64,000 nt of DNA from Candidatus Enterousia sp. (lineage in GTDB: Bacteria; Pseudomonadota; Alphaproteobacteria; Rs-D84), in assembly GCA_045635585.1 (NCBI GenBank), contig JAZTWA010000001.1, forward strand, positions 28-64,027, read 5' to 3'. The notes under the pieces were generated by a model. The model did no database searches. It had not been told where the DNA came from and saw only the letters and a program-made list of their open reading frames with translations. Below are positions 2,089 to 27,138 of this stretch, one piece after another; the stretch's first letter is position 1; the number at the start of each line of letters is the position of its first letter. The translations under genes were made by a program, and so were the position numbers.

Positions 2089-4128
2089 ATGAAGTTTAAA
2101 AAAATTATTCGAATATTTCTTAATTTGTTTTTCTGGTCTTTTGTCGTTGGGATTGCGACATTGGCGGTTTTGATATTAATTCATGGCAACAATTTACCTG
2201 ATTATAAAAAGTTGGCAACATATGCGCCACCGGTTGCGACGCGTCTGTATGCGTCTGATGGTTCATTGTTGATAGAATATGCCGAAGAAAGACGTGTTTT
2301 TATTGATTACGAAGATTTGCCGCCTCAATTGGTGAACGCATTTATCGCGGCCGAAGACCAAAATTTTTGGACACACCCTGGGATTGATTTCCAAGGGGTA
2401 ATTCGCGCGGCTGCAAACAATGCGATGCGTATGATTGGATATAATACGACATTATCTGGTGCGTCAACTATTACACAACAGGTTGCCAAGAACTTCTTTT
2501 TAACATCTGAACGCACAATATCTCGGAAAATCAAAGAAGCGATATTGGCACTTCGACTAGAGCGCAGTTTTTCCAAGGAACATATTTTAACATTGTATTT
2601 GAATCAGATATTTTTAGGTGCGCGTGCATATGGTGTTGGGTCTGCGGCATTAATGTATTTTAATAAACCTGTGTCTGAATTATCTTTGGCCCAGTGTGCG
2701 TTTTTGGCATCTTTGCCCAAGGCACCAAACAATCGTTCGCGTGCGGTTGAACGTCGTAATTATGTTTTGCGCCGTATGGTTGAAGAAGGCTTTATTACCC
2801 AAGCCGAAGCGGATATTGCGGTCGCTGAAGAATTGAATATCAACAGTGGTTTTACCGCACAAATGGAAGAAGATTTTCAGTATTTTGCCGAAGATGTTCG
2901 TCGCCAGTTATTGGGTTCGTTGGGACGTGAAGTTTTATATAATCAGGGATTGTATATCAAAACAACAATTGTTCCTGAATTACAGCGTGCTGCGTCTGCC
3001 GCATTGAAGAAAGAATTAGATGCATATAATGCTGGGCGCAGTGATAAATTACAGGGCGCGATTATTGCAATGAATCCACATACGGGTCGAATTGTTGCAA
3101 TGGCAGGCGGTTATTCATTCAAGGACAGTTCATTTAATCGTGCAACCCAGGCATATCGTCAAATTGGCTCTACGATAAAGCCGTTTGTTTATTTGGCGGC
3201 ATTGGAACGCGGGTACAGTCCACAAACAATGATTCTGGATGCGCCAATTGTTGGTTGGCGTGAAGATGATACGCTTTGGAAGCCTGAAAATTATGATAAA
3301 AAATTCTTGGGTGATGTGCCGTTACGATTGTCATTGGAAACATCGCGAAATGTTCCAACTGTACGATTGGTTGAACAGATTGGAACCCAGAATGCGATTG
3401 AAGTGGCTCAGCGTTTTGGTGTATATCCATCACAAATGTCAAATATGAATTTGTCTATGGCATTGGGGTCGGGTGAAACAACATTGGAAAAATTGGTTTT
3501 GGGATATTCGGCCTTTATTAATGGTGGTCGTGCGATTCAACCAAAATTAGTTGATTATATAGAAGATAGATATGGACGTGTGATTGATGGTACTGCCACC
3601 CAGATTCTTGAATGGTCAGATGATTTGTTGCCACCAGAAACAGTCGTTGATTCCGAACCTTTGTCGGATCCGCAAAGTTTGTATCAAATGGTGTCTATAT
3701 TACAGGGTGCGGTTGAACGCGGTACGGGCAAGCAGGCGCGTGTTGCGGGACATACAATTGCGGGGAAAACTGGAACAACCAATGATGTCAAAGATGTATG
3801 GTTTGTTGGTTTTTCTAAAAACTTGATTGCGGGTGTTTATCTGGGATTTGATACACCAAAGTCCTTGGGACGTGGTGCAGGGTCGCATATGGCAGCACGT
3901 GTGTTTGCAGATTTTATGACAACGGCATTGGCAAATGAAAAAAATCAGCCCTTTTCTGTGCCCGATGGAATGACATTTATGCGCGTTAATCGTCGCAGTG
4001 GCGCATCTGCATCTGCAGACCCAAATGGTACGATTATCCAAGAAGTGTTTAAATCGGGTCAAACACCTAATCCTGCGCCGAAAAAAACAGTGCCCGAAAC
4101 AACGGCGGTTGTTGGCGGTGTATTTTAA
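2089..4128 (+). CDS. mrcA: Penicillin-binding protein 1A (bifunctional transglycosylase/transpeptidase)
   Basis: GT51 motifs: AAEDQNFWTHPGID, GASTITQQVAKN, RKIKEA. Transpeptidase motifs: STIKP and KTGTTND. N-terminal TM anchor. Start moved to MKFKK. Confidence 0.9.
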   Translation: MKFKKIIRIFLNLFFWSFVVGIATLAVLILIHGNNLPDYKKLATYAPPVATRLYASDGSLLIEYAEERRVFIDYEDLPPQLVNAFIAAEDQNFWTHPGIDFQGVIRAAANNAMRMIGYNTTLSGASTITQQVAKNFFLTSERTISRKIKEAILALRLERSFSKEHILTLYLNQIFLGARAYGVGSAALMYFNKPVSELSLAQCAFLASLPKAPNNRSRAVERRNYVLRRMVEEGFITQAEADIAVAEELNINSGFTAQMEEDFQYFAEDVRRQLLGSLGREVLYNQGLYIKTTIVPELQRAASAALKKELDAYNAGRSDKLQGAIIAMNPHTGRIVAMAGGYSFKDSSFNRATQAYRQIGSTIKPFVYLAALERGYSPQTMILDAPIVGWREDDTLWKPENYDKKFLGDVPLRLSLETSRNVPTVRLVEQIGTQNAIEVAQRFGVYPSQMSNMNLSMALGSGETTLEKLVLGYSAFINGGRAIQPKLVDYIEDRYGRVIDGTATQILEWSDDLLPPETVVDSEPLSDPQSLYQMVSILQGAVERGTGKQARVAGHTIAGKTGTTNDVKDVWFVGFSKNLIAGVYLGFDTPKSLGRGAGSHMAARVFADFMTTALANEKNQPFSVPDGMTFMRVNRRSGASASADPNGTIIQEVFKSGQTPNPAPKKTVPETTAVVGGVF

Positions 4129-4195
4129 TTCTTATAATAACATTTGTTTATAAAAAGTTTTGTGATAAAATGTCAGCATAAAGAAAGGATTTTTT

Positions 4196-5284
4196 ATGCT
4201 GACCGAATATTTTTTTGAACATGGATTAACATTTTTTGCCAGTGGTTGGACCCAGTTTGCGGGTGCGTTTTTTGTGGCATTTGCTATTATGCTTTTGTTT
4301 GGACGTCCCTTTATTGCCGCGATGCGTGCATTACAGAAAAAAGGGCAGCCAATCAGTGAAAATGTACCACAATCCCACGTGGTCAAGGCTGGTACGCCAA
4401 CAATGGGTGGTGTTCTGATAATATTTGCCATATTGTGTGGCAGTTTGCTGTTTATGCCATTAAATAATTTATCAGGTTGGTTGGCATTAATGTCGTTGGT
4501 TATGTTTGGCACATTGGGATTTGTTGATGATTATAAAAAAGTTGTGTCTCAATCGAAAAAAGCATCAAATGGTTTATCACCATTGACTCGTCTTGTTGTC
4601 GAAGGTATCTTTGTTGTAATATTGGCATATTTAATTAATCAAACAATGCCGCCGTATATTCCTGAATATTCTTTGGCAATTGGTGCGGGAATTATTTTGC
4701 CTTTGGGCTTTTGGTATTATGTGTTTGCGTATTTTGTCATTTGTGGCAGTGCGAACGCAACAAATATCACAGATGGTTTGGATGGAATGTTGTCTAAATT
4801 GTATTTGCCTGTGTTGGTTGTTTTGGTTGTTGCGCTTTATGGTGCAACCCGTATTGGCTTTATGGATACTGTGATGTTCTTGCCAACGGCCAGTGGTCTG
4901 TATGCGGTACTTGGTGCGGTGTTTGGCGCGGTATTAGGATTTTTGTGGTATAATTCAAAGCCGGCATCAATATTTATGGGTGACGTTGGTTCTTTGGCTT
5001 TGGGTGGTTTTATGGGAACCGTTGCAATGTTATTAAAGTCCGAAATTATTATGGGTATTGCGGCCGGTATGATGGTGTTGATTTTATTATCGTCATTTGC
5101 TCAGACAATGTACTTCAAAATTACGCGTCATCTCACAGGAACTGGTCGTCGCATATTTTTGCGCGCTCCATTACATCATCATTTTGAAGAATTGGGTTGG
5201 ACCGAAACAAAAATTGTTGAAAGATTCTTTATCTTGTCGATATTGTTTTCGGGATTGGCATTGGTTTTATTAAAATTTGCATAA
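4196..5284 (+). CDS. mraY: Phospho-N-acetylmuramoyl-pentapeptide transferase
   Basis: KxGTPTMGG, NATNITDGLDGM, FMGDVGSLALGG and APLHHHFE motifs. Polytopic membrane protein. Confidence 0.95.
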   Translation: MLTEYFFEHGLTFFASGWTQFAGAFFVAFAIMLLFGRPFIAAMRALQKKGQPISENVPQSHVVKAGTPTMGGVLIIFAILCGSLLFMPLNNLSGWLALMSLVMFGTLGFVDDYKKVVSQSKKASNGLSPLTRLVVEGIFVVILAYLINQTMPPYIPEYSLAIGAGIILPLGFWYYVFAYFVICGSANATNITDGLDGMLSKLYLPVLVVLVVALYGATRIGFMDTVMFLPTASGLYAVLGAVFGAVLGFLWYNSKPASIFMGDVGSLALGGFMGTVAMLLKSEIIMGIAAGMMVLILLSSFAQTMYFKITRHLTGTGRRIFLRAPLHHHFEELGWTETKIVERFFILSILFSGLALVLLKFA

Positions 5285-6437
5285 AGAAAAAAATATGTTC
5301 AAGCGCAGTGAAGAAAGTAAATTAACCAGTTGGTATTTTGAAATTGACAGACGTCTATTAGGATGTGTTCTGTTGATGATTTTGTTGTCTGTGGTGTTTG
5401 CGTTGTCTGCGGGTTCTGTTGCGGCTGAACGTATTGGTATGCCATGGCACTTCTTTTTGGTCAAAGCAATACCTTTTTATTTAATGGGACTGCTGATTTT
5501 GTTTGGAACCAGTTTTCTTAATAAAAAACAAGTATTATTATTGGCTGGGTTAAACTTGGCATTTGGATTGGCGTTATTGCCGATAACGGTTGTTGCGCCA
5601 CATATGATAAATAATTCTGCGCGCTTTGTGTCGTTTGGTTTTGCGAATGTCATGCCGTCGGATATTATGAAGCCTGGCTTTATAATATTAACGGCATATT
5701 TTTTATCCAAGATGAAAGAACGTTATGGTTCGAATATATTCTTTAATAAAGAATCATGGCGTTTTGATACGTGGTTAAGTTGGGCTTATTATATGCCATT
5801 GTTTTTGTTGGTTGTTTTTATAATATTTAATCACCCTGACTTGGGCAGTGCGATGTTGTATTTGTTGGTGTTTTCTGCCATGATTTTTATTGCGGGTTTA
5901 CCATTGATTTGTGTTCCTGTATTGGTGGGGGCGGGTCTTTTGATGTTGGTTGTTGCGTTTTTTACATTGGGACACGTTCATCGTCGTATAATTGCATTTT
6001 TTACAGGTTCAGGCGATACGTACCAAGTTGATAATTCTGTCGATTCAATTCGTCATGGTGGTTTGTTGGGTGCGGGTGATGACGCGTTTGTGAAACAATA
6101 TTTGCCCGACGTTCATACAGATTTTATCTTTGCGGCCATTGCCGAAGATTTGGGCGCAATATTGGCATGTGGATTATTGGTATTGCTGTTTTATGTATTT
6201 CGTCGTTTGATAACAAATGCGACCAACGCGCGCGATTTGTTTGTTTTGTATGCAACGGGTGGTACGGCCGCATTATTTGGAACACAGATATGTTTTAATA
6301 TGATGACAACATTAAATTTATTCGCCCCAAAGGGTATGACATTACCATTTATATCATATGGTGGCAGTTCTTTGTTGGCATATTGTTTGCTGTTTGGAAT
6401 GGTGTTGGCATTAATACGTGAAGACAAATGGAAATAA
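5277..6437 (+). CDS. ftsW: SEDS-family peptidoglycan polymerase FtsW (alternative start at 5295)
   Basis: Ten-TM-like profile; TDFIFAAIAEDLG and LPFISYGGSS motifs; position between mraY and murG. Confidence 0.85.
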   Translation: MHKEKNMFKRSEESKLTSWYFEIDRRLLGCVLLMILLSVVFALSAGSVAAERIGMPWHFFLVKAIPFYLMGLLILFGTSFLNKKQVLLLAGLNLAFGLALLPITVVAPHMINNSARFVSFGFANVMPSDIMKPGFIILTAYFLSKMKERYGSNIFFNKESWRFDTWLSWAYYMPLFLLVVFIIFNHPDLGSAMLYLLVFSAMIFIAGLPLICVPVLVGAGLLMLVVAFFTLGHVHRRIIAFFTGSGDTYQVDNSVDSIRHGGLLGAGDDAFVKQYLPDVHTDFIFAAIAEDLGAILACGLLVLLFYVFRRLITNATNARDLFVLYATGGTAALFGTQICFNMMTTLNLFAPKGMTLPFISYGGSSLLAYCLLFGMVLALIREDKWK

Positions 6438-20990: not shown

Positions 20991-21365
20991 ATGGAAAATT
21001 CAAATGAATACTTTTTGTCGATAAACGAAGTGTCCAAGCGGCTTTCTGTGCCTGCACATACATTGCGTTATTGGGAAAAGCAATTCCCAATGGCGATACG
21101 GCCAACAACTGGTGCGGGCGGTCGTCGATATTATCGTGCCGAAACGGTTGCGCGTTTGACGGTTATTCGTGATTTGTTGTACAAGCATGGTATGACAATT
21201 GCAGGGGTAAAAAAATTATTACGTGATGGCAATTTGCCGGCCACCACAGAAGAACTTCTGGCAAATGTATCGATATCTGAAGGGGCGATTGGCTCGGTGG
21301 CGACATCTGATGATTTAGATGCGGTGATTGGATTACTGCAAACGGCCAAAAATATATTGGAATAA
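20991..21365 (+). CDS. MerR-family transcriptional regulator
   Basis: HTH LSINEVSKRLSVPAHTLRYWEKQF...GGRRYY. Confidence 0.85.
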   Translation: MENSNEYFLSINEVSKRLSVPAHTLRYWEKQFPMAIRPTTGAGGRRYYRAETVARLTVIRDLLYKHGMTIAGVKKLLRDGNLPATTEELLANVSISEGAIGSVATSDDLDAVIGLLQTAKNILE

Positions 21366-21370
21366 AAAAA

Positions 21371-21392
21371 ACCGGCAAATGCCGGTTTTTTT
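21371..21392. terminator. Bidirectional terminator
   Basis: ACCGGC-AAAT-GCCGGT flanked by A- and T-runs, between convergent genes. Confidence 0.8.
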
Positions 21393-21393
21393 A

Positions 21394-21846
21394 TTAACGT
21401 GATTTTCTGCTATTGATAGAATCTTGCTCTAAAATATGCACGCGCTTTGCACTCAAATCATACATTTTTCGCGCTTCTTCGATTTCTGGACAATCTGCAA
21501 TATATTTTTCTCTTAATTCTTCTTTTTTTGCAACAATCGCTCTGTCCAAAGAATCGATTCTTGGTTCCATATGATTGTATGCTTCTGGGTTTTGGCGATG
21601 AATTTTGATTAAAGAATCTAATTCTTTATATTCTGGATATGTCTTGATTTTGCTGTCTGCATTTTGTTTGGCGAATTCGTATGCGTTGTCCAGTGTGCGT
21701 TCGGCAAACTTTAATTTGGTGCGCGCATCATCTAAATCGCGTTGAATAAAATGTCCTTTTTTGAATTGCAGTGCGCAGAACAATAATACCGCAGAACAAA
21801 AAGCGGATAACATAACAATACGTTCAAATTTATTTTGGTTGTTCAT
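21394..21846 (-). CDS. Membrane-anchored hypothetical protein (150 aa)
   Basis: Start at MNNQNKF, preceded by AAAGGA. One N-terminal TM helix; the rest is charged and predicted helical. Confidence 0.5.
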   Translation of the reverse strand: MNNQNKFERIVMLSAFCSAVLLFCALQFKKGHFIQRDLDDARTKLKFAERTLDNAYEFAKQNADSKIKTYPEYKELDSLIKIHRQNPEAYNHMEPRIDSLDRAIVAKKEELREKYIADCPEIEEARKMYDLSAKRVHILEQDSINSRKSR

Positions 21847-21927
21847 AAAAAATCCTTTGTTATAATTTTTTCGGAAGGATGGTAGCACAAATATTTCGAT
21901 TGTCAACAAAATAGAGCGTCAATTTTC

Positions 21928-21964
21928 GCACGACCAAGCACAGAACTGGCAGTCCCAACGGGAA
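21928..21964 (-). repeat. 37-bp duplicate of the tRNA-Glu 3' end plus its downstream flank
   Basis: GCACGACCAAGCACAGAACTGGCAGTCCCAACGGGAA is identical to 22044..22080. Confidence 0.9.
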
Positions 21965-22043
21965 ACCGAATGAATAAAAACCCCATGAGTTGCGTTATTA
22001 GCAACGAATGGCTGGTTTGCGTCAAGAGATTCGCCGTTGTCCA

Positions 22044-22080
22044 GCACGACCAAGCACAGAACTGGCAGTCCCAACGGGAA
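22044..22080 (-). repeat. 37-bp repeat copy overlapping the intact tRNA-Glu 3' end
   Basis: Identical to 21928..21964. Covers 18 nt of the tRNA and 19 nt of flank. Confidence 0.9.
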
Positions 22081-22137
22081 TCGAACCCGTCTTCCCAGAA
22101 TGAGAATCTGGTGTCCTAACCGATAGACGATGGGACC
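22063..22137 (-). tRNA. tRNA-Glu (anticodon CTC), CCA encoded
   Basis: Reverse strand GGTCCCATCGTCTATCGGTTAGGACACCAGATTCTCATTCTGGGAAGACGGGTTCGATTCCCGTTGGGACTGCCA. It folds as a cloverleaf with anticodon loop TTCTCAT. Confidence 0.85.
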
Positions 22138-22224
22138 GTATGAGTTACTGTCCCAGTATTACATAAAAAGAAATAGAATTTCAAATGAAAGTTTTCCTTG
22201 CGCCAAATAAATTTGTTCATTAGT

Positions 22225-22971
22225 ATGCTTTACAACATGGCTGGATCAATACGCAGATTTTTTTCAAATATTGTTTGTGGCTTTATTGCAAATAAAGACA
22301 CGCGTAAACGCGTTCGTGTTATCTTAAATTCTGATATGTTGTCTGCCTTGCGTTTTATCCGTCGAAATACCGGATTGAAATTAACCAAGATAAAAACATT
22401 TGTTGGTTATCAGGCGCGAAATTTGTTAATCAGTGTCAATGATAAATATGTTTTTAAATTTCCGCTTCGTCGTTCGAATTCACGTGAATTAACATTGCGT
22501 GAACAGCGTGTTGTTGATGTGTTTGCGCGTATATCACCAATCTATGTACCGTCTGTTATGGTTTTTGAACATCGTGGTGAATTGGTGCGTCGTTATGAAT
22601 TTATTCGTGGTACACAATTACGCCAGGTGCCATTGGATATTGCCATGGCGAATATTGATAAATTGGCATCACAAATCGCGCAATTTTTATTCACAGTGGG
22701 TATGTCGGATCCTGATGAATTGCGTGATTTAAAACCGTCGCCCGATGCGGTGCCTGGGTATATGTATGGTTGGTTCCAAGGTGATATTTGTGATAACTTT
22801 TTTATTGATACGACAACAATGGAAATTGTTGCGTTTATTGATTGGGAAGATTGTATATTTGGTGATTTTTCAGATTGTGTATATGGGCATAAATGCAGTC
22901 CACAACGTGAATTAATGGCGGCGGTTGGACGTGAATATGATAAACTGTGGTCTATGTATCATGATGCGTAA
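22225..22971 (+). CDS. APH-like phosphotransferase/kinase family protein (start could be 22237)
   Basis: C-terminal FIDWEDCIFGDFSDC resembles the aminoglycoside/choline-kinase family IDWE..GxGD motif. The rest fits a kinase-fold length. Confidence 0.55.
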   Translation: MLYNMAGSIRRFFSNIVCGFIANKDTRKRVRVILNSDMLSALRFIRRNTGLKLTKIKTFVGYQARNLLISVNDKYVFKFPLRRSNSRELTLREQRVVDVFARISPIYVPSVMVFEHRGELVRRYEFIRGTQLRQVPLDIAMANIDKLASQIAQFLFTVGMSDPDELRDLKPSPDAVPGYMYGWFQGDICDNFFIDTTTMEIVAFIDWEDCIFGDFSDCVYGHKCSPQRELMAAVGREYDKLWSMYHDA

Positions 22972-22972
22972 A

Positions 22973-22995
22973 AATGCCTAATTAGGCATTTTTTT
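22973..22995. terminator. Bidirectional terminator
   Basis: Palindrome AATGCCTAATTAGGCATT flanked by A- and T-runs, between convergent genes. Confidence 0.7.
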
Positions 22996-23752
22996 ACTTT
23001 GTGTTATTTATGCCGTTTAGAAGAATTGCTGATTCTTGATTTTTAAGCATCTCGGTTATTTTTATGCGTGTGTCCCTGCGTTTTGTGTTTGCATTTATTT
23101 CCAGTGGATTTTCATCATACAGTTGCAAATCATGTTGTGGGTTTACATAAAACATTTGTGCGTCCTGATTTGTATCTGGATCAATAATACTGATTGATGG
23201 AATGAACATATCTATAAAATGTGTAAGTTCATGTTTTAAATCCATCAAAAAGAATACGGCACTCTTTTGGTAAAATGGATGCTGAAAGTTTATATACAAA
23301 GTTCCGTCACGTGATACACCCATCATTGCACCTGGGATGTTTCTGTCTTGTGTTTCAAGATTTGGAATACTATTAATAATATCCTCTTTGAATGCGGTAT
23401 CAATGGTGTTGTTGGTGTATTTATATTTACTGCCATCGCGATTGTGTAGTTGGACACGATTTTGTAAAATATCATCTTTGATATTATGTATAAAAACCTT
23501 TACGATTTTATCAGTGATAGATATTTTGTCCGCGACTGATTTGGAATCCCAATTATAAAAACTGCCAAATATAGATTTGTCATTACATGCATCAACAAGT
23601 CTTTGTAATAAGTATTCCGAAAATTTTTCTGCGGCATCTGCATCCAGTTTTTTACGAAAAACATCATTTTTTGCCCGCGTCAGTTTGTTCCATTTTTCAG
23701 TGGATTCCATCGCTTCAAGCATTTCAATCATTTTGTTGTGCGAATTATTCAT
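22994..23752 (-). CDS. Hypothetical protein with an HExxH motif (252 aa), no signal peptide
   Basis: LKHELTHFID (HExxH), with a downstream acidic stretch DENPLEINA. Its start lies 3 nt after the stop of the upstream ORF. Confidence 0.55.
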   Translation of the reverse strand: MNNSHNKMIEMLEAMESTEKWNKLTRAKNDVFRKKLDADAAEKFSEYLLQRLVDACNDKSIFGSFYNWDSKSVADKISITDKIVKVFIHNIKDDILQNRVQLHNRDGSKYKYTNNTIDTAFKEDIINSIPNLETQDRNIPGAMMGVSRDGTLYINFQHPFYQKSAVFFLMDLKHELTHFIDMFIPSISIIDPDTNQDAQMFYVNPQHDLQLYDENPLEINANTKRRDTRIKITEMLKNQESAILLNGINNTK

Positions 23753-23755
23753 CGT

Positions 23756-24484
23756 TTATCTTCTTTTTTTACTGTAACGGGCCAGAAATTTATTTATTTG
23801 CGAATTGTTTTCGGGCTGAATATTTTGTTTGTTTTCTATTTTTGTAATATTTGTAATTTTTTGTCTGTTTTTTGTTTTAACGGCGTACAGATTTTGGTTT
23901 TCGCCATTACCCAAGAAAACTTCTTTTAATAAATTGTCATAATTTTTTCGGAAATCTTTATTAGCATGATATAAAAAGTTAGAAATACGCTCGACGATTC
24001 CCGAATGGCTGTTGGGGGTGAATTCTTTCAGACGTGAAAATTTACCGTTTACAGATAACTGTAATGTTTTATTGTCGTTTGTTGTAATTTTAATGTCATC
24101 AAAATTTATGTCATTATTTTTTGCGGCGTCTAAAATCATATCGAACAGAAAATCTTGCATTGCTTCGTAATCCAGTTGCCAATCTGGATACTTAACATCG
24201 TTATAATCAATTTTACATTCTGCAATATATGCGTGCTTTTCTGGGTTGTGTTCCCATGTGTCTTGCATATCTTTTATGTGATTTTGCGTTGCCTGAACAT
24301 TGGTAAAGAAATAATATCCATTACTTTGGCCACCCAAAGCATTTTGTGATGGGTTAAAGTACCCAGTTGTTTTGATTTTATTAAATGCTGCATCATCTAT
24401 GGGTGTGATAACGTGATACAAAGTAATTTGTTTTGCTTTTATCTTATTTGTCGCGGACTTTAACTTTTCTGTTGTGGTATTCAT
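23756..24484 (-). CDS. Hypothetical protein (242 aa), no signal peptide
   Basis: Long ORF with a basic C-terminal tail, tightly coupled to 22994..23752. No known motif. Confidence 0.5.
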   Translation of the reverse strand: MNTTTEKLKSATNKIKAKQITLYHVITPIDDAAFNKIKTTGYFNPSQNALGGQSNGYYFFTNVQATQNHIKDMQDTWEHNPEKHAYIAECKIDYNDVKYPDWQLDYEAMQDFLFDMILDAAKNNDINFDDIKITTNDNKTLQLSVNGKFSRLKEFTPNSHSGIVERISNFLYHANKDFRKNYDNLLKEVFLGNGENQNLYAVKTKNRQKITNITKIENKQNIQPENNSQINKFLARYSKKRR

Positions 24485-24615
24485 TTTTAATGTTTTTTGT
24501 TTGTTTTATTTTGACCAAAATTATAGCAAAAAAAAGCTTAAAAGTCCAGTTCTGTTGAAAAAAGTAATTTTTAAGGAATAGGCTCTATTGTGCAATTCGT
24601 GATGTATAGCAAAAT

Positions 24616-24680
24616 AAAAATGCCCCATGTGGGCATTGTTTTATTCTGGTTGGGGTGTGCGGGCAAAACGCGAACCGAGT
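24616..24680 (-). repeat. Duplicate of the tRNA-Gln 3' end plus terminator hairpin (40 bp perfect, then a decayed tRNA remnant)
   Basis: 24616..24655 AAAAATGCCCCATGTGGGCATTGTTTTATTCTGGTTGGGG is identical to 26264..26303. The next ~25 nt still resemble the tRNA (..GCGG..CGAACC..). Confidence 0.9.
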
Positions 24681-24681
24681 T

Positions 24682-26007
24682 TTACATGTCTTTTCCAGTT
24701 GTTTGTCGTTGTAAAACCATTTCGTTTTGTAAGTATTGTATAATCCCTTGTGGTTGAATAATTTTGTTGTCGCCAGTCTGACCGTTTGATACAGCGGTTT
24801 GTTGTGCAATTTCAAAAAAATGATGCGGTGTCAGATTTGGCGCAACCTGTTTTGCTAATGCATAAACCCCAACTAAATACGGTGTTGACCACGACATGCC
24901 AGAATTTGCTCCGCAATATATATAATCGTCGTTACTTTGGTTTCCGGCGATTGTTCGGCCGCCAGCAGGAACTAACAGGTGTTCGTGCAAATTGTCTTTA
25001 TTTTTCTTCCAAAATCCCACTTCATAAGATTGTATGTCGTCGGGGTTAGAATTCATTTTTCTATCTATTGTTATGAAATTTGCCTTGTCTCCATAAAAAC
25101 GTTCTGAGTCCGTTGTTAAAACCATAACACCGCTGTCAATTAATTGTTTTATTAGTTTCGTGCTTTCTGGGTCTGTACCTAGCATTCCCCAGCTAATTGA
25201 TACGGCAGATATTTTTTTGTCTTGCGGTAATCTGGCGTTCATAAACAAGATTTTACGTAATGCTTTGGCACGATGCGTAAAGTATATTTCTGTTTTTACG
25301 GAAAAAGCCTGTTCTTTTATATCTGGTGGTAAATTTGCAATAATTTGGTTTATTTTATGGCTAAATTCTTCGTCTATTTGATGTCTGTTATTAAGTATGT
25401 CCTTTATTGTTTCATCAAAATCCATATCTTTCGGAAAATATTGTCGCAATACTTTTTGAAAATTCTCATCGGCAAGTGTTCTTTTTATTTTTGTTGCGTT
25501 TGCTGCGAAATAAACAATTTTTGCATCTGGTGCAACGCCAACAGTTTTACCTGCTAATAAACTTGATACTGCCGTCCCATGAATTTGTGCTTCTAGATGT
25601 TCAGGATATCCATTTGATTCATAGTGAATTATGTTGTCTTTTATTTCGCTGTGTTCTGTATTTAATGGCTGGTCTATAATCGCAACGGTTATACCTTTTC
25701 CTGTAATTCCCATTGCATGCAAGTCGCCGATACTTAGTCCCGGGACTTTGCCGTTTTCTAAAACCTGTTCTGGATTAAATCCATCTGGCATTTTATCGAT
25801 AGTTGGAAATTTTGTTTTGCTGTTAAATCTTATGTATGGTAGCTTTTCACCAGCATTGGAAAAGTCAACTTCAGATGCATCGCCATATAAAACAAAAGAT
25901 TGTGAATCTAATTTTGTATCGGTATCAAATTCTGGAATCCGAATGTCGTTTATTGCAATCGGTTTTGCGCCCTTGTTTTTCTTAAATACTGTCAGAAAAT
26001 CCTGCAT
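24682..26007 (-). CDS. Subtilisin-like (S8) serine protease, no signal peptide
   Basis: Catalytic triad contexts ITVAIIDQP (Asp), HGTAVSSLLAG (His) and GMSWSTPYLVGVYAL (Ser). Confidence 0.8.
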   Translation of the reverse strand: MQDFLTVFKKNKGAKPIAINDIRIPEFDTDTKLDSQSFVLYGDASEVDFSNAGEKLPYIRFNSKTKFPTIDKMPDGFNPEQVLENGKVPGLSIGDLHAMGITGKGITVAIIDQPLNTEHSEIKDNIIHYESNGYPEHLEAQIHGTAVSSLLAGKTVGVAPDAKIVYFAANATKIKRTLADENFQKVLRQYFPKDMDFDETIKDILNNRHQIDEEFSHKINQIIANLPPDIKEQAFSVKTEIYFTHRAKALRKILFMNARLPQDKKISAVSISWGMLGTDPESTKLIKQLIDSGVMVLTTDSERFYGDKANFITIDRKMNSNPDDIQSYEVGFWKKNKDNLHEHLLVPAGGRTIAGNQSNDDYIYCGANSGMSWSTPYLVGVYALAKQVAPNLTPHHFFEIAQQTAVSNGQTGDNKIIQPQGIIQYLQNEMVLQRQTTGKDM

Positions 26008-26263
26008 AATGCAACCTCCGCGTATGTTGGTTTATAATTATACCATATATATAGTTCTTGCTGAATGAAAATCAATGCGTTATGCTGGCCGACCACAACC
26101 ATTTTGAATAAAAAGACCAGTTAGAGCAGTTTTTTATTAGTTTTACAATATTATTGCTGGTTCGAATGTTTTTAGTGATTTATTGTTAGTTCGAAAGTGT
26201 TGATAATAACATAATTTTTCTAATTTTAACTTTCGAACTCGTCAAACACTTGTGTTTCAAACA

Positions 26264-26303
26264 AAAAATGCCCCATGTGGGCATTGTTTTATTCTGGTTG
26301 GGG
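26264..26303 (-). repeat. 40-bp repeat copy: terminator hairpin plus the 3' end of the intact tRNA-Gln
   Basis: Identical to 24616..24655. The hairpin AATGCCC-CATGT-GGGCATT is followed by a T-run on the minus strand. Confidence 0.9.
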
Positions 26304-26368
26304 CGCACGGATTCGAACCATGATAAAGAGAACCAAAATCTCTTGTCCTACCATTAGACGACACCCCA
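26295..26368 (-). tRNA. tRNA-Gln (anticodon TTG), CCA encoded
   Basis: Reverse strand TGGGGTGTCGTCTAATGGTAGGACAAGAGATTTTGGTTCTCTTTATCATGGTTCGAATCCGTGCGCCCCAACCA. It folds as a cloverleaf and resembles the E. coli tRNA-Gln pattern. Confidence 0.88.
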
Positions 26369-26417
26369 ATTGCGTCAGTGATTATAAACATATTTTAATA
26401 AAAAGCAATAATATTTT

Positions 26418-27029
26418 TTATCTGCTTCGCATTTTATATTGTGTCTGATTATTTATTTTGTCTTGGGTTTTATCAAATTCAATTTGGGCGCGCGTGCGAA
26501 TATTGTGTTGAATCAAGAATTCTTCTTGGCTCAATATATATTTTTGTTGGCCGGCTGAATCCAGTGATGCGATTTCGCGTCCGCGCATTGTTGAAAAGAA
26601 ATCCGGTTTATATCCGTATTCCCATGACAGACGAATTCTGTCGCCGTCCCACAGACATGCGGAAACGCCATTTGGTGCGTTTTGTCCAATTGTGTGTTTG
26701 GCGACGGCATCCAATATTTGTTCGGTGTCTGACTTTGATAATTGTGGATAGTGCATTGATAAAAATTTTTGACCAACTGGAACGGCGTCTGGTCCGTGAT
26801 TTACACACCATGCGTCATTTGTTCTGGCGCAATCGTGCAGTGCTGCCGCCAATATTGCGGGTAATGGATCTTGGTTTATGTGTTGTGCAATATCAATTGC
26901 AAACATTGCAACCTGAATAGTATGTGATAGGCCATGATAACCATATCGAGACTGGTTGGTTACGTATTCGATTTTTGGTAAGATGTCATCAAAGAATAGT
27001 TTTGTGTATTTTATTCGAATGTTTGACAT
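26418..27029 (-). CDS. HD-domain phosphohydrolase family protein
   Basis: GLSHTIQV...AAALHDCAR gives the H...HD signature. Confidence 0.65.
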   Translation of the reverse strand: MSNIRIKYTKLFFDDILPKIEYVTNQSRYGYHGLSHTIQVAMFAIDIAQHINQDPLPAILAAALHDCARTNDAWCVNHGPDAVPVGQKFLSMHYPQLSKSDTEQILDAVAKHTIGQNAPNGVSACLWDGDRIRLSWEYGYKPDFFSTMRGREIASLDSAGQQKYILSQEEFLIQHNIRTRAQIEFDKTQDKINNQTQYKMRSR

Positions 27030-27056
27030 TTTTTATTCTTTTTTATGATTTTCTAC

Positions 27057-27085
27057 TTGAAATAATATTTGTTAAAATATATAAT
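27057..27085 (+). promoter_or_regulatory. Candidate sigma70-type promoter for the marR-efflux operon
   Basis: TTGAAA, 17 nt, TATAAT, about 50 nt upstream of the marR ATG. Confidence 0.45.
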
Positions 27086-27138
27086 AATTAAGTTTTTTAA
27101 CAATTTTTCTGACCAAACCTATTATACAGGAGTTAAAA

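Follow-up and report, generated by a model that had tools for sequence, protein, structure and literature searches.

In islands integrated at tRNA genes, and in their integrase-less derivatives (CIMEs), a direct repeat of the 3′ part of the tRNA marks the far end of the element. The tRNA-linked repeats (TLRs) of Escherichia coli also copy the end of a tRNA; those of strain K-12, reported by Egan and Landy in 1978 and by Rudd in 1999, include the tyrT repeats and the RtT RNA (RF00391) (PMC8144298). They are non-coding, number 22 copies at ten loci (one to five at each), and occur immediately behind a tRNA or rRNA gene whose sequence is repeated exactly in their last 18–19 bp; although known since 1978, their function and origin are unexplained (PMC8144298). 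Here we describe a stretch of 64,000 nucleotides (the window; contig JAZTWA010000001.1 of assembly GCA_045635585.1, Candidatus Enterousia sp.) in which a tRNA-Glu(CUC) gene and a tRNA-Gln(UUG) gene each have a repeat of their 3′ end nearby. The original prediction, made from the letters of the window, had joined both repeats and the four genes between the two tRNAs into one accessory islet left by integration at tRNA genes. Our analysis indicates that the locus is probably two separate tRNA-linked repeat structures within a partly conserved gene neighborhood, and not one islet. The repeat behind tRNA-Glu belongs to a new family of TLR-like folded elements found at tRNA-Glu(CUC), tRNA-Gly(UCC), and tRNA-Gly(CCC), and the repeat behind tRNA-Gln frames a promoter-and-terminator slot whose single gene differs between near-identical strains.

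All coordinates are those of the window unless a contig is named; the window is contig C1 of the assembly (label G000; 0.93 Mb, 28 contigs, 39.6% GC, 92% complete), and genome-contig C1 numbering equals the window position plus 27. Related genomes and sequences are cited by their G and L labels where they have to be told apart. The tRNA-Glu gene (22063–22137) and the tRNA-Gln gene (26295–26368), which anchors the slot, were both called by ARAGORN and scored 56.4 and 57.7 bits, respectively, with the Rfam tRNA model. The perfect repeat at tRNA-Glu comprises 37 nt (21928–21964 and 22044–22080; 100% identity, spacing 116), and the repeat at tRNA-Gln comprises 60 nt at 87% identity (24603–24662 and 26251–26310; spacing 1648) with a perfect 40-nt core (24616–24655 and 26264–26303). 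The two co-oriented tRNAs, the four genes between them, and the perfect repeats of 37 and 40 nt were all confirmed as originally predicted, and from a value of 4^-37 we infer that chance is ruled out as the source of perfect 37–40-mers occurring twice in 64 kb. The geometry does not, however, fit a single islet bounded by both repeats. Both tRNAs lie on the minus strand, and their 3′ ends therefore face lower coordinates; because the 3′ end of tRNA-Glu (22063) points this way, its repeat falls outside the four-gene interval, toward the p171 and MerR genes. The inner copy of the tRNA-Gln repeat lies within the interval, between the p242 gene and the protease gene, so that only the latter, which encodes a subtilisin-like (S8) protease, is bracketed. 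No recombinase or integrase domain was detected in the open reading frames (ORFs) of 21300–27100, in agreement with the predicted lack of an integrase, and PF00589 gave no match on contig C1.

The tRNA-Glu repeat resolves into a tRNA-linked repeat unit of 116 nt (21947–22062, minus strand), defined by repeat comparison and matched at 125 bits by our covariance model R1 (genome coordinates C1:21974–22089). The unit begins at the base next after the CCA of tRNA-Glu, on the same strand, and consists of a 19-nt leader (22044–22062), a folded core of 79 nt (21965–22043), and an 18-nt copy of the tRNA-Glu tail, TTCCCGTTGGGACTGCCA (21947–21964; 18/18 identical). Past this tail, the first 19 nt of a second unit, corresponding to its leader, are present (21928–21946, minus strand), followed by unrelated sequence with the p171 promoter, as judged by comparing units from 15 genomes. 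The perfect repeat extends over 37 nt rather than 18 because the 18-nt tail is joined to these 19 nt of a partial second unit; in total, the window holds 1.16 units.

At its start the unit imitates the 5′ strand of the T-stem, and between this mimic and the tail comes the core. In the consensus fold, the copy of the T-stem 3′ strand supplies the 3′ side of the closing helix, and there is also a long hairpin with an invariant GTTGC-TAATAAC-GCAAC sequence, in which TAATAAC is the loop. With 15 sequences, 99.4% of cells were paired and 6 pairs showed compensatory changes, a result that none of 500 shuffles equaled, and controls with a slid structure were near zero. With 33 distinct sequences, 98.3% were paired with 9 compensatory pairs, and the covariation score was 0.375 compared with 0.125 for shuffled and at most 0.105 for slid controls. 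Pairing of the leader with the copied acceptor strand was considered as well and was rejected, there being no consistent complement and no covariation. A search of the window from 21300 to 26500 and of four other loci of the genome against Rfam at E <= 1 returned only tRNAs and chance matches. The view of this repeat as a decayed integration scar thus gives way to a conserved folded element that carries compensatory changes and stands behind three different tRNAs.

The unit stands behind tRNA-Glu(CUC) in 15 of 151 genus genomes, as one to two full units with spacings of 115–118 nt, and model R1 finds matches in 57 of 150 genomes. At 15 inspected loci of the weaker class of matches, the unit follows tRNA-Gly(UCC), tRNA-Gly(CCC), or an earlier unit with a tRNA-Gly(CCC) tail. 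In 27 of 30 loci the unit ends in 18 nt that agree without a mismatch with the end of the tRNA or unit before it, and this matching spans eight different 18-mers, including three acceptor-stem variants of tRNA-Glu. The number of units varies from one to three, with second units often partial: two full units are present in G006 and G024 and three in G124, 46 nt of a second unit are retained in G075, and in G120 the second copy runs to the end of the fetched stretch. The flank past the second tail copy is unrelated in several genomes, and the constant feature is therefore a core ending in an 18-nt tRNA tail.

Some copies of the unit are interrupted or unusually placed. The tRNA-Glu units of G072 and G067 both end abruptly in one and the same stretch of the core, past GCAAAC, and in G072 (L027, 1057–1130) about 8 kb, including a DNA-methylase-like ORF, lies between tRNA-Glu and MerR; the folded core may itself be a target for larger insertions. 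Genome G091 (L096, G091:C46:3349–6462; reverse complement, ~1370–1560) has a full-length copy of tRNA-Gly(CCC) that is not called by ARAGORN and bears an insert of ~88 nt with a Gln/Lys-type core in its T-loop, between TTCGA and TCCC. An R1-type unit comes next, and an intact tRNA-Gly(CCC) is found ~0.8 kb beyond.

The repeat at tRNA-Gln has a different architecture. Read from the tRNA on the minus strand, the slot opens with a terminator and a conserved ~260-nt platform with a promoter at its end; one ORF comes next, and a tail-like sequence and a second copy of the terminator conclude it. The proximal repeat copy (26251–26310), located by repeat and terminator scans, contains the true 3′ end of tRNA-Gln (26295–26310) and a terminator hairpin (26267–26285), and the platform proper, delimited by BLAST and the alignment of its copies, contains three TTCGAA-containing motifs (26102–26250, minus strand). 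It is followed by a degenerate tRNA-Gln tail copy in inverted orientation (26077–26101; plus strand, GCGTTATGCTGGCCGACCACAACCA) and by the 5′ untranslated region and promoter of the slot (26008–26076, minus strand), with an extended –10 box, TGGTATAAT, at 26037–26045 that we placed by aligning G000, L110, and L111. After the S8 gene, the present cargo (24682–26007, minus strand), the slot is closed by the distal repeat copy (24603–24662, minus strand), located by the same scans, in which the tail-like part (24647–24662) is exact over its last 9 nt and the terminator hairpin occupies 24619–24637. The sequence TGGTTGGGGTGTGCGGGCAAAACGC at 24647–24671 forms an imperfect inverted-repeat arm with 26077–26101, with 19 of 25 positions complementary, so that the two arms flank the promoter and the S8 ORF; the equivalent arms in L110 extend over 45 nt at 76%, and the inverted tail-like end is present in 20 of 21 aligned platform copies. 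The ~260 nt from the tRNA-Gln terminator to the ORF are conserved in G000, L110, L111, and G071. Within the platform (26150–26250), two of the three TTCGAA motifs form an exact 11-nt inverted pair, AGTTCGAAAGT and ACTTTCGAACT, ~37 nt apart and nearly invariant in the 21 aligned copies, which could be a protein-binding site or a hairpin.

The relatives reveal that it is the content of this slot that changes. A framework of GyrA, MerR, (p171), tRNA-Glu, APH-like gene, variable DNA, tRNA-Gln, HD, MarR, and OEP is kept in G071, G075, and G072, where the variable part measures 3.4 kb, 9.5 kb, and ~21 kb, respectively. The clearest case is provided by L110 and L111, which carry an identical p242 homologue and are collinear at 97–99% identity except for the slot gene: L110 has 1410 bp with an S8 gene, whereas L111 has 973 bp with a gene for a 312-aa APH-like protein. 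The swapped segment starts just past the TGGTATAAT –10 box and ends just past the stop codon, ahead of a shared GTTCGCG and the copy of tail plus terminator. The accessory character claimed in the original prediction is borne out for the stretch behind tRNA-Gln, where content ranges from 3.4 to ~21 kb and S8 and APH-like genes replace each other in 97–99% identical flanks. The prediction had named comparison with relatives as its check and the same genes in relatives as what would speak against it; the slot content varies, but the APH-like gene and p242 are kept, and p242 and HExxH252 both recur in this region of G072, which in part speaks against the islet.

Platform matches were obtained by BLAST in 53 of the 151 genus genomes, with at most five matching pieces per genome, and in relatives the platform alternates with single genes behind both tRNA-Gln(UUG) and tRNA-Gln(CUG). 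The modules between the genes of these arrays are imperfect palindromes built from tRNA tail and terminator. Besides the S8 protease, the cargo includes APH-like kinases, a Pol-beta-type nucleotidyltransferase, an RNase T-like exonuclease, a P-loop kinase, S-adenosylmethionine (SAM) methyltransferases, a GNAT protein, a 366-aa ankyrin-repeat protein, and proteins of no known family, and a sodium:solute symporter gene stands at the end of one array. We rejected inversion of a cassette flanked by inverted repeats, given that every cargo gene has one constant orientation wherever it is seen. The search for an integron integrase with TIGR02249 gave only Xer-like matches under the cut-off, on other contigs. 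In G000 itself, the second tRNA-Gln gene (CUG; C11:6528–7261) is followed by a terminator, a truncated platform with the first TTCGAA motif, and a single gene on the opposite strand. The product of this gene, a 180-aa "LYHGS" protein, also appears among the array cargo of G085 and G070.

The S8 protease itself recurs at other tRNAs. Its predicted class was confirmed (Pfam Peptidase_S8, PF00082, E 1.7e-12, 47.7 bits, above the cut-off), and the motifs IIDQP, HGT, and GMSWSTP, in Asp-His-Ser order, align to 7y6m. The best solved matches are the intracellular subtilisins 7y6m and 7xr8, albeit weakly (E 7.6e-8), and residues 167–261, ~95 aa between the His and Ser regions, are left unaligned to them. 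Intracellular subtilisins (ISPs) are known to lack signal peptides, and a leaderless S8 protein would be normal for this class. A metagenome-assembled genome (MAG), KG228-117, encodes a protease of 90% amino acid identity directly behind tRNA-Thr(tgt), where it is bracketed, together with a second ORF on the opposite strand, by repeats at a spacing of ~2350 that comprise tail, terminator, and flank of this tRNA (93.5% over 31 nt and 89% over 66 nt). A homologue of 42–56% in G023 lies behind tRNA-Gly/tRNA-Tyr after one short tail-bearing unit, and on its far side the tail and terminator of tRNA-Tyr are repeated over 40 nt (97.5%); this homologue has an N-terminal hydrophobic segment. MAG bin.98 has an 80% homologue in the interval from tRNA-Gln to tRNA-Glu, with a 173-nt tail-bearing unit upstream of it. 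What these protease loci have in common besides the ORF is limited to the promoter region around the –10 box.

Two further observations concern these homologues. In L071 (KG228-117; 2756–5301) and L072 (1404–2977), a tRNA-Thr-specific module, made of tail, terminator, and ~150 nt ending in CTGTGATGCAAAGTGTGATGC, recurs two to three times around single genes; it is a second module family with the layout of the tRNA-Gln platform. In G040, of another genus and family (L033 = G040:C1:193500–202000; 3785–4895), a 31% S8 homologue is situated between rplT and pheS, where it is flanked by a duplication of 27 nt that takes in the ribosome-binding site and the first codons of pheS, so that the protease ORF starts as pheS does (MID...).

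The tRNA-Glu and tRNA-Gln repeats are not isolated cases in this genome. Each tRNA of G000 (ARAGORN lists ~45) was compared, with its flanks, against the whole assembly by BLAST. Perfect repeats of 3′ end plus flank were found behind five, namely Glu(CUC), Gln(UUG), Cys, Lys(ctt), and Lys(ttt), and a sixth case, Glu(ttc), was assembled across the ends of contigs C23 and C13. Repeat spacings at these tRNAs are 116–195 nt, with the exception of 1648 nt at tRNA-Gln. Tail-bearing units of 180–195 nt are located behind Lys-ctt (C12:106851–107172), Lys-ttt (C28:134–424), Glu-ttc (C23 end and C13 end), and Cys (C5:89996–90298). A homologous core of ~125 nt is common to three of these inserts, those of Lys(ctt), Lys(ttt), and Glu(ttc) (nhmmer E 1e-14 to 1e-16); it begins with a GGTTCG T-arm mimic and ends with GGGAAT, after which each insert has the tail of its own tRNA. 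A single model for all cores was tried and abandoned; the Lys/Glu(ttc)/Gln type and the Glu(CUC)/Gly type align only at GGTTCG and GGGAAT and were kept as separate families.

The same genome contains repeats of another order of size. For tRNA-Pro(tgg), 25 nt of the 3′ end recur at a distance of 11.2 kb (C6:327–11574), and next to this tRNA stands a 642-aa ORF in which a weak integrase domain was detected; for tRNA-Pro(ggg), 20 nt recur at 10.2 kb (C11:45772–56082). These pairs are classical-looking islands and a class separate from the short units in size and content. Further tyrosine recombinases lie near tRNAs elsewhere in G000. GIY-YIG matches in the genome number three (C24, C12, and C18), none of them on the contig of the window; the one at C24:12988–13212 is a free-standing 113-aa ORF, and the nearest tRNA called on C24 is 6.6 kb away.

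The remaining three genes of the interval behave as neighbors of the repeats. The APH-like kinase gene (22198–22971, plus strand) matches Pfam APH at E 2.8e-7, as predicted, and a homologue adjoins tRNA-Glu in G071 (64%), G075 (41%), G072 (40%), G050 (63%), and L110/L111; judged by this recurrence, it is a resident neighbor of tRNA-Glu and not a cassette. Also as predicted, no Pfam family covers the 252-aa HExxH protein (HExxH252; 22994–23752, minus strand) or the p242 protein (23756–24484, minus strand). For p242 there are 55 homologues of ~242 aa, and its gene comes directly after the slot in four other contigs (L110–L113). HExxH252, with 14 homologues in which H174, E175, and H178 are invariant, is lineage-specific. 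Both genes are found in this region of G072, where the HExxH252 homologue (77%) lies beside p242. From these placements, p242, and HExxH252 in some relatives, are residents of the locus rather than parts of one imported block. Confident AlphaFold2 (AF2) models of p242 and HExxH252 (predicted local distance difference test scores of 85.1 and 85.8, respectively) gave no PDB match at E <= 0.001. Weak fold leads are the ADP-ribosyltransferases EcPltA, ParT, and DarT for p242 (with low match probabilities throughout) and minigluzincins (at best about an even chance) and the BlaR1 protease domain for HExxH252. A relation of p242 to the 180-aa LYHGS cassette protein through a YHG motif was discarded, since hhalign assigned it a negligible probability and no relation was detectable.

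Composition does not set the four genes apart. Their GC content at third codon positions (GC3) lies between the 15th and 30th percentile of the genome and their codon-usage distance between the 16th and 80th, and total GC is low only for p242 (2nd percentile) and HExxH252 (4th percentile). The deviation looked for in the original prediction is thus missing, none of the four genes leaving the range of the genome in GC3 or codon usage, and the four do not form one accessory block: the S8 gene varies alone, and the APH-like gene and p242 are kept. The prediction that none of the proteins has a signal peptide agrees with N-termini that, judged by eye, have no hydrophobic leader. A role in defense had been suggested for checking; a PADLOC search with six proteins gave no credible match, the best being a generic subtilase model (E 9e-6), and NCBIfam yielded nothing above cut-off for the proteins of the locus. 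As regards the type IV secretion system (T4SS), for which the prediction named the leaderless proteases and kinases as candidate effectors, a VirB10-like gene is present in the contig of the window and a VirD4-like gene on C5, and VirB4 (PF03135) was not found in the 92%-complete assembly. The genome also encodes a transfer-messenger RNA (tmRNA) of the permuted, two-piece type (C26:4785–5138; tag AANDNVRLAMAA), which fits an alphaproteobacterium.

Given these data, we considered how such repeats might arise. Neutral local tandem duplication, that is, slippage or unequal crossing-over behind tRNAs that leaves functionless repeats, would be compatible with unit numbers of one to three, with the often partial second units, and with the 37-nt repeat of the window as a truncated second unit; however, the invariant 17-nt hairpin and nine compensatory pairs in 33 distinct sequences from three tRNA contexts, and the recurrence at six tRNAs in one genome, make it hardly credible as an explanation. 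Very improbable, too, is a pair of classical integration scars, in which integrase-bearing elements would have entered at the 3′ ends of tRNA-Glu and tRNA-Gln and left their att repeats after deletion of the integrase and most of the cargo. No recombinase is present in 21300–27100, the 116-nt unit shows compensatory changes and conservation across 15 genomes, and the same core occurs at three different tRNAs with the local tail each time; by our reasoning, an attR is not expected to show the layout of T-stem mimic, core, and tail. Such scars would account for identity blocks that run from the T-loop/T-stem through the 3′ end, the usual place of att sites in tRNA genes, and the genome does have islands of this kind at tRNA-Pro(tgg) and tRNA-Pro(ggg) and tyrosine recombinases near tRNAs, but the locus is of ordinary composition, and the swapped segment is delimited by the –10 box and the stop codon instead of by the tail copies. 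For the Glu unit, the integration-scar reading is largely refuted.

A site-specific system anchored at tRNAs, either cassette-like with an integron-like layout or homing, is somewhat more probable, although we still think it unlikely. Here the tail modules would be the sites of an enzyme encoded elsewhere, a recombinase or homing nuclease, that inserts folded cores and single-gene cassettes at the T-loops or 3′ ends of tRNAs. Against it, TIGR02249 found only Xer-like proteins under the cut-off and no integron integrase, and no GIY-YIG match lies on the contig of the window, the small C24 ORF being 6.6 kb from the nearest called tRNA. The core family that is present at different tRNAs with a tail adapted to each, the full-length tRNA-Gly(CCC) copy of G091 with an 88-nt core in its T-loop, and the same S8 gene at tRNA-Gln, tRNA-Thr, and tRNA-Tyr, within a bracket of tail and terminator each time, speak for such an enzyme. 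The platform-gene-platform-gene arrays of relatives and the inverted tail-like arms around promoter and ORF also point this way, whereas the constant orientation of each cargo gene gives no sign of inversion, and the L110/L111 swap is equally explained by homologous recombination in 97–99% identical flanks.

We therefore return to two separate tRNA-linked structures in a partly conserved neighborhood as the preferred reading, for which the following course of events can be proposed. The Glu unit would be co-transcribed with its tRNA and cut out by the tRNA 3′-end machinery as a small structured RNA. Recombination or gene conversion between tail copies may keep the tail equal to the tRNA and expand or contract the array. 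The slot genes are probably exchanged by recombination within the conserved boundary modules, with DNA from related strains. Some of our own results weigh against this reading. The closing-helix pair 27–106 fails in 10 of 32 scored sequences, and the 33-sequence alignment (A5) was fitted to the covariance model, which favors the structure. The relatives are kin, and genome counts are consequently not independent. No Rfam family matches the Glu unit, RtT (RF00391) included, and the likeness to TLRs is one of architecture, not homology. Finally, the inverted tail-like arms around promoter and ORF, and likewise the tRNA-Gly(CCC) copy of G091 with a core in its T-loop, could point to a site-specific enzyme instead.

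The Glu unit represents a second TLR-type family, unrelated to that of E. coli, in uncultured gut Alphaproteobacteria. Its many diverged copies, compensatory changes, and tRNA-tracking tail provide a testable structure and allow comparisons for which the copies in E. coli give no basis. The slot suggests a route of gene flux at tRNA genes without an integrase in the locus, in genomes of ~0.9 Mb. For annotation, tRNA-tail repeats such as these should not be scored automatically as island scars. There is a small chance that the tRNA-tail modules, folded cores and platforms alike, are the recombination sites of an integron-like cassette system or the sites of a T-loop-homing mobile element; if this is true, the system, driven by an enzyme encoded elsewhere, would place single genes and small folded RNAs downstream of many tRNAs and would explain the origin of tRNA-linked repeats.

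When set beside known systems, the locus resembles several in part. The S8 protease shares with intracellular subtilisins its aligned Asp, His, and Ser motifs and the absence, by eye, of an N-terminal hydrophobic leader, but the match is weak, ~95 aa are left unaligned, and the G023 homologue has a hydrophobic N terminus. As in integron arrays, single-gene cassettes stand between imperfectly palindromic modules, a resident promoter serves the first slot, and the cargo includes kinase, nucleotidyltransferase, and acetyltransferase types; in contrast to integrons, there is no IntI, the modules are made from tRNA tail and terminator and not from attC, cassettes occur in both orientations, and the array is anchored at a tRNA gene. 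With tRNA islands and CIMEs the locus has in common the distal direct repeat of the tRNA 3′ part, a hotspot at the tRNA 3′ end, and strain-variable content. It departs from them in having no integrase at the tRNA end, no deviant composition, and no presence or absence as a block, in spacings of 116 bp and 1.6 kb compared with 8–12 kb for the real islands of this genome, in a short unit that is a conserved folded element, and in swap edges at a promoter and a stop codon. The closest likeness of the Glu unit is to the TLRs of E. coli, in that it lies directly downstream of a tRNA, carries an 18-nt copy of the tail, and occurs as one to three tandem units across genomes. It differs in its core, which combines a helix closed by the T-stem mimic with a long TAATAAC-loop hairpin and has no RF00391 match, and in its alphaproteobacterial host, and at this locus a second repeat, the tRNA-Gln tail plus terminator, brackets a protein-coding gene that is exchanged between strains.

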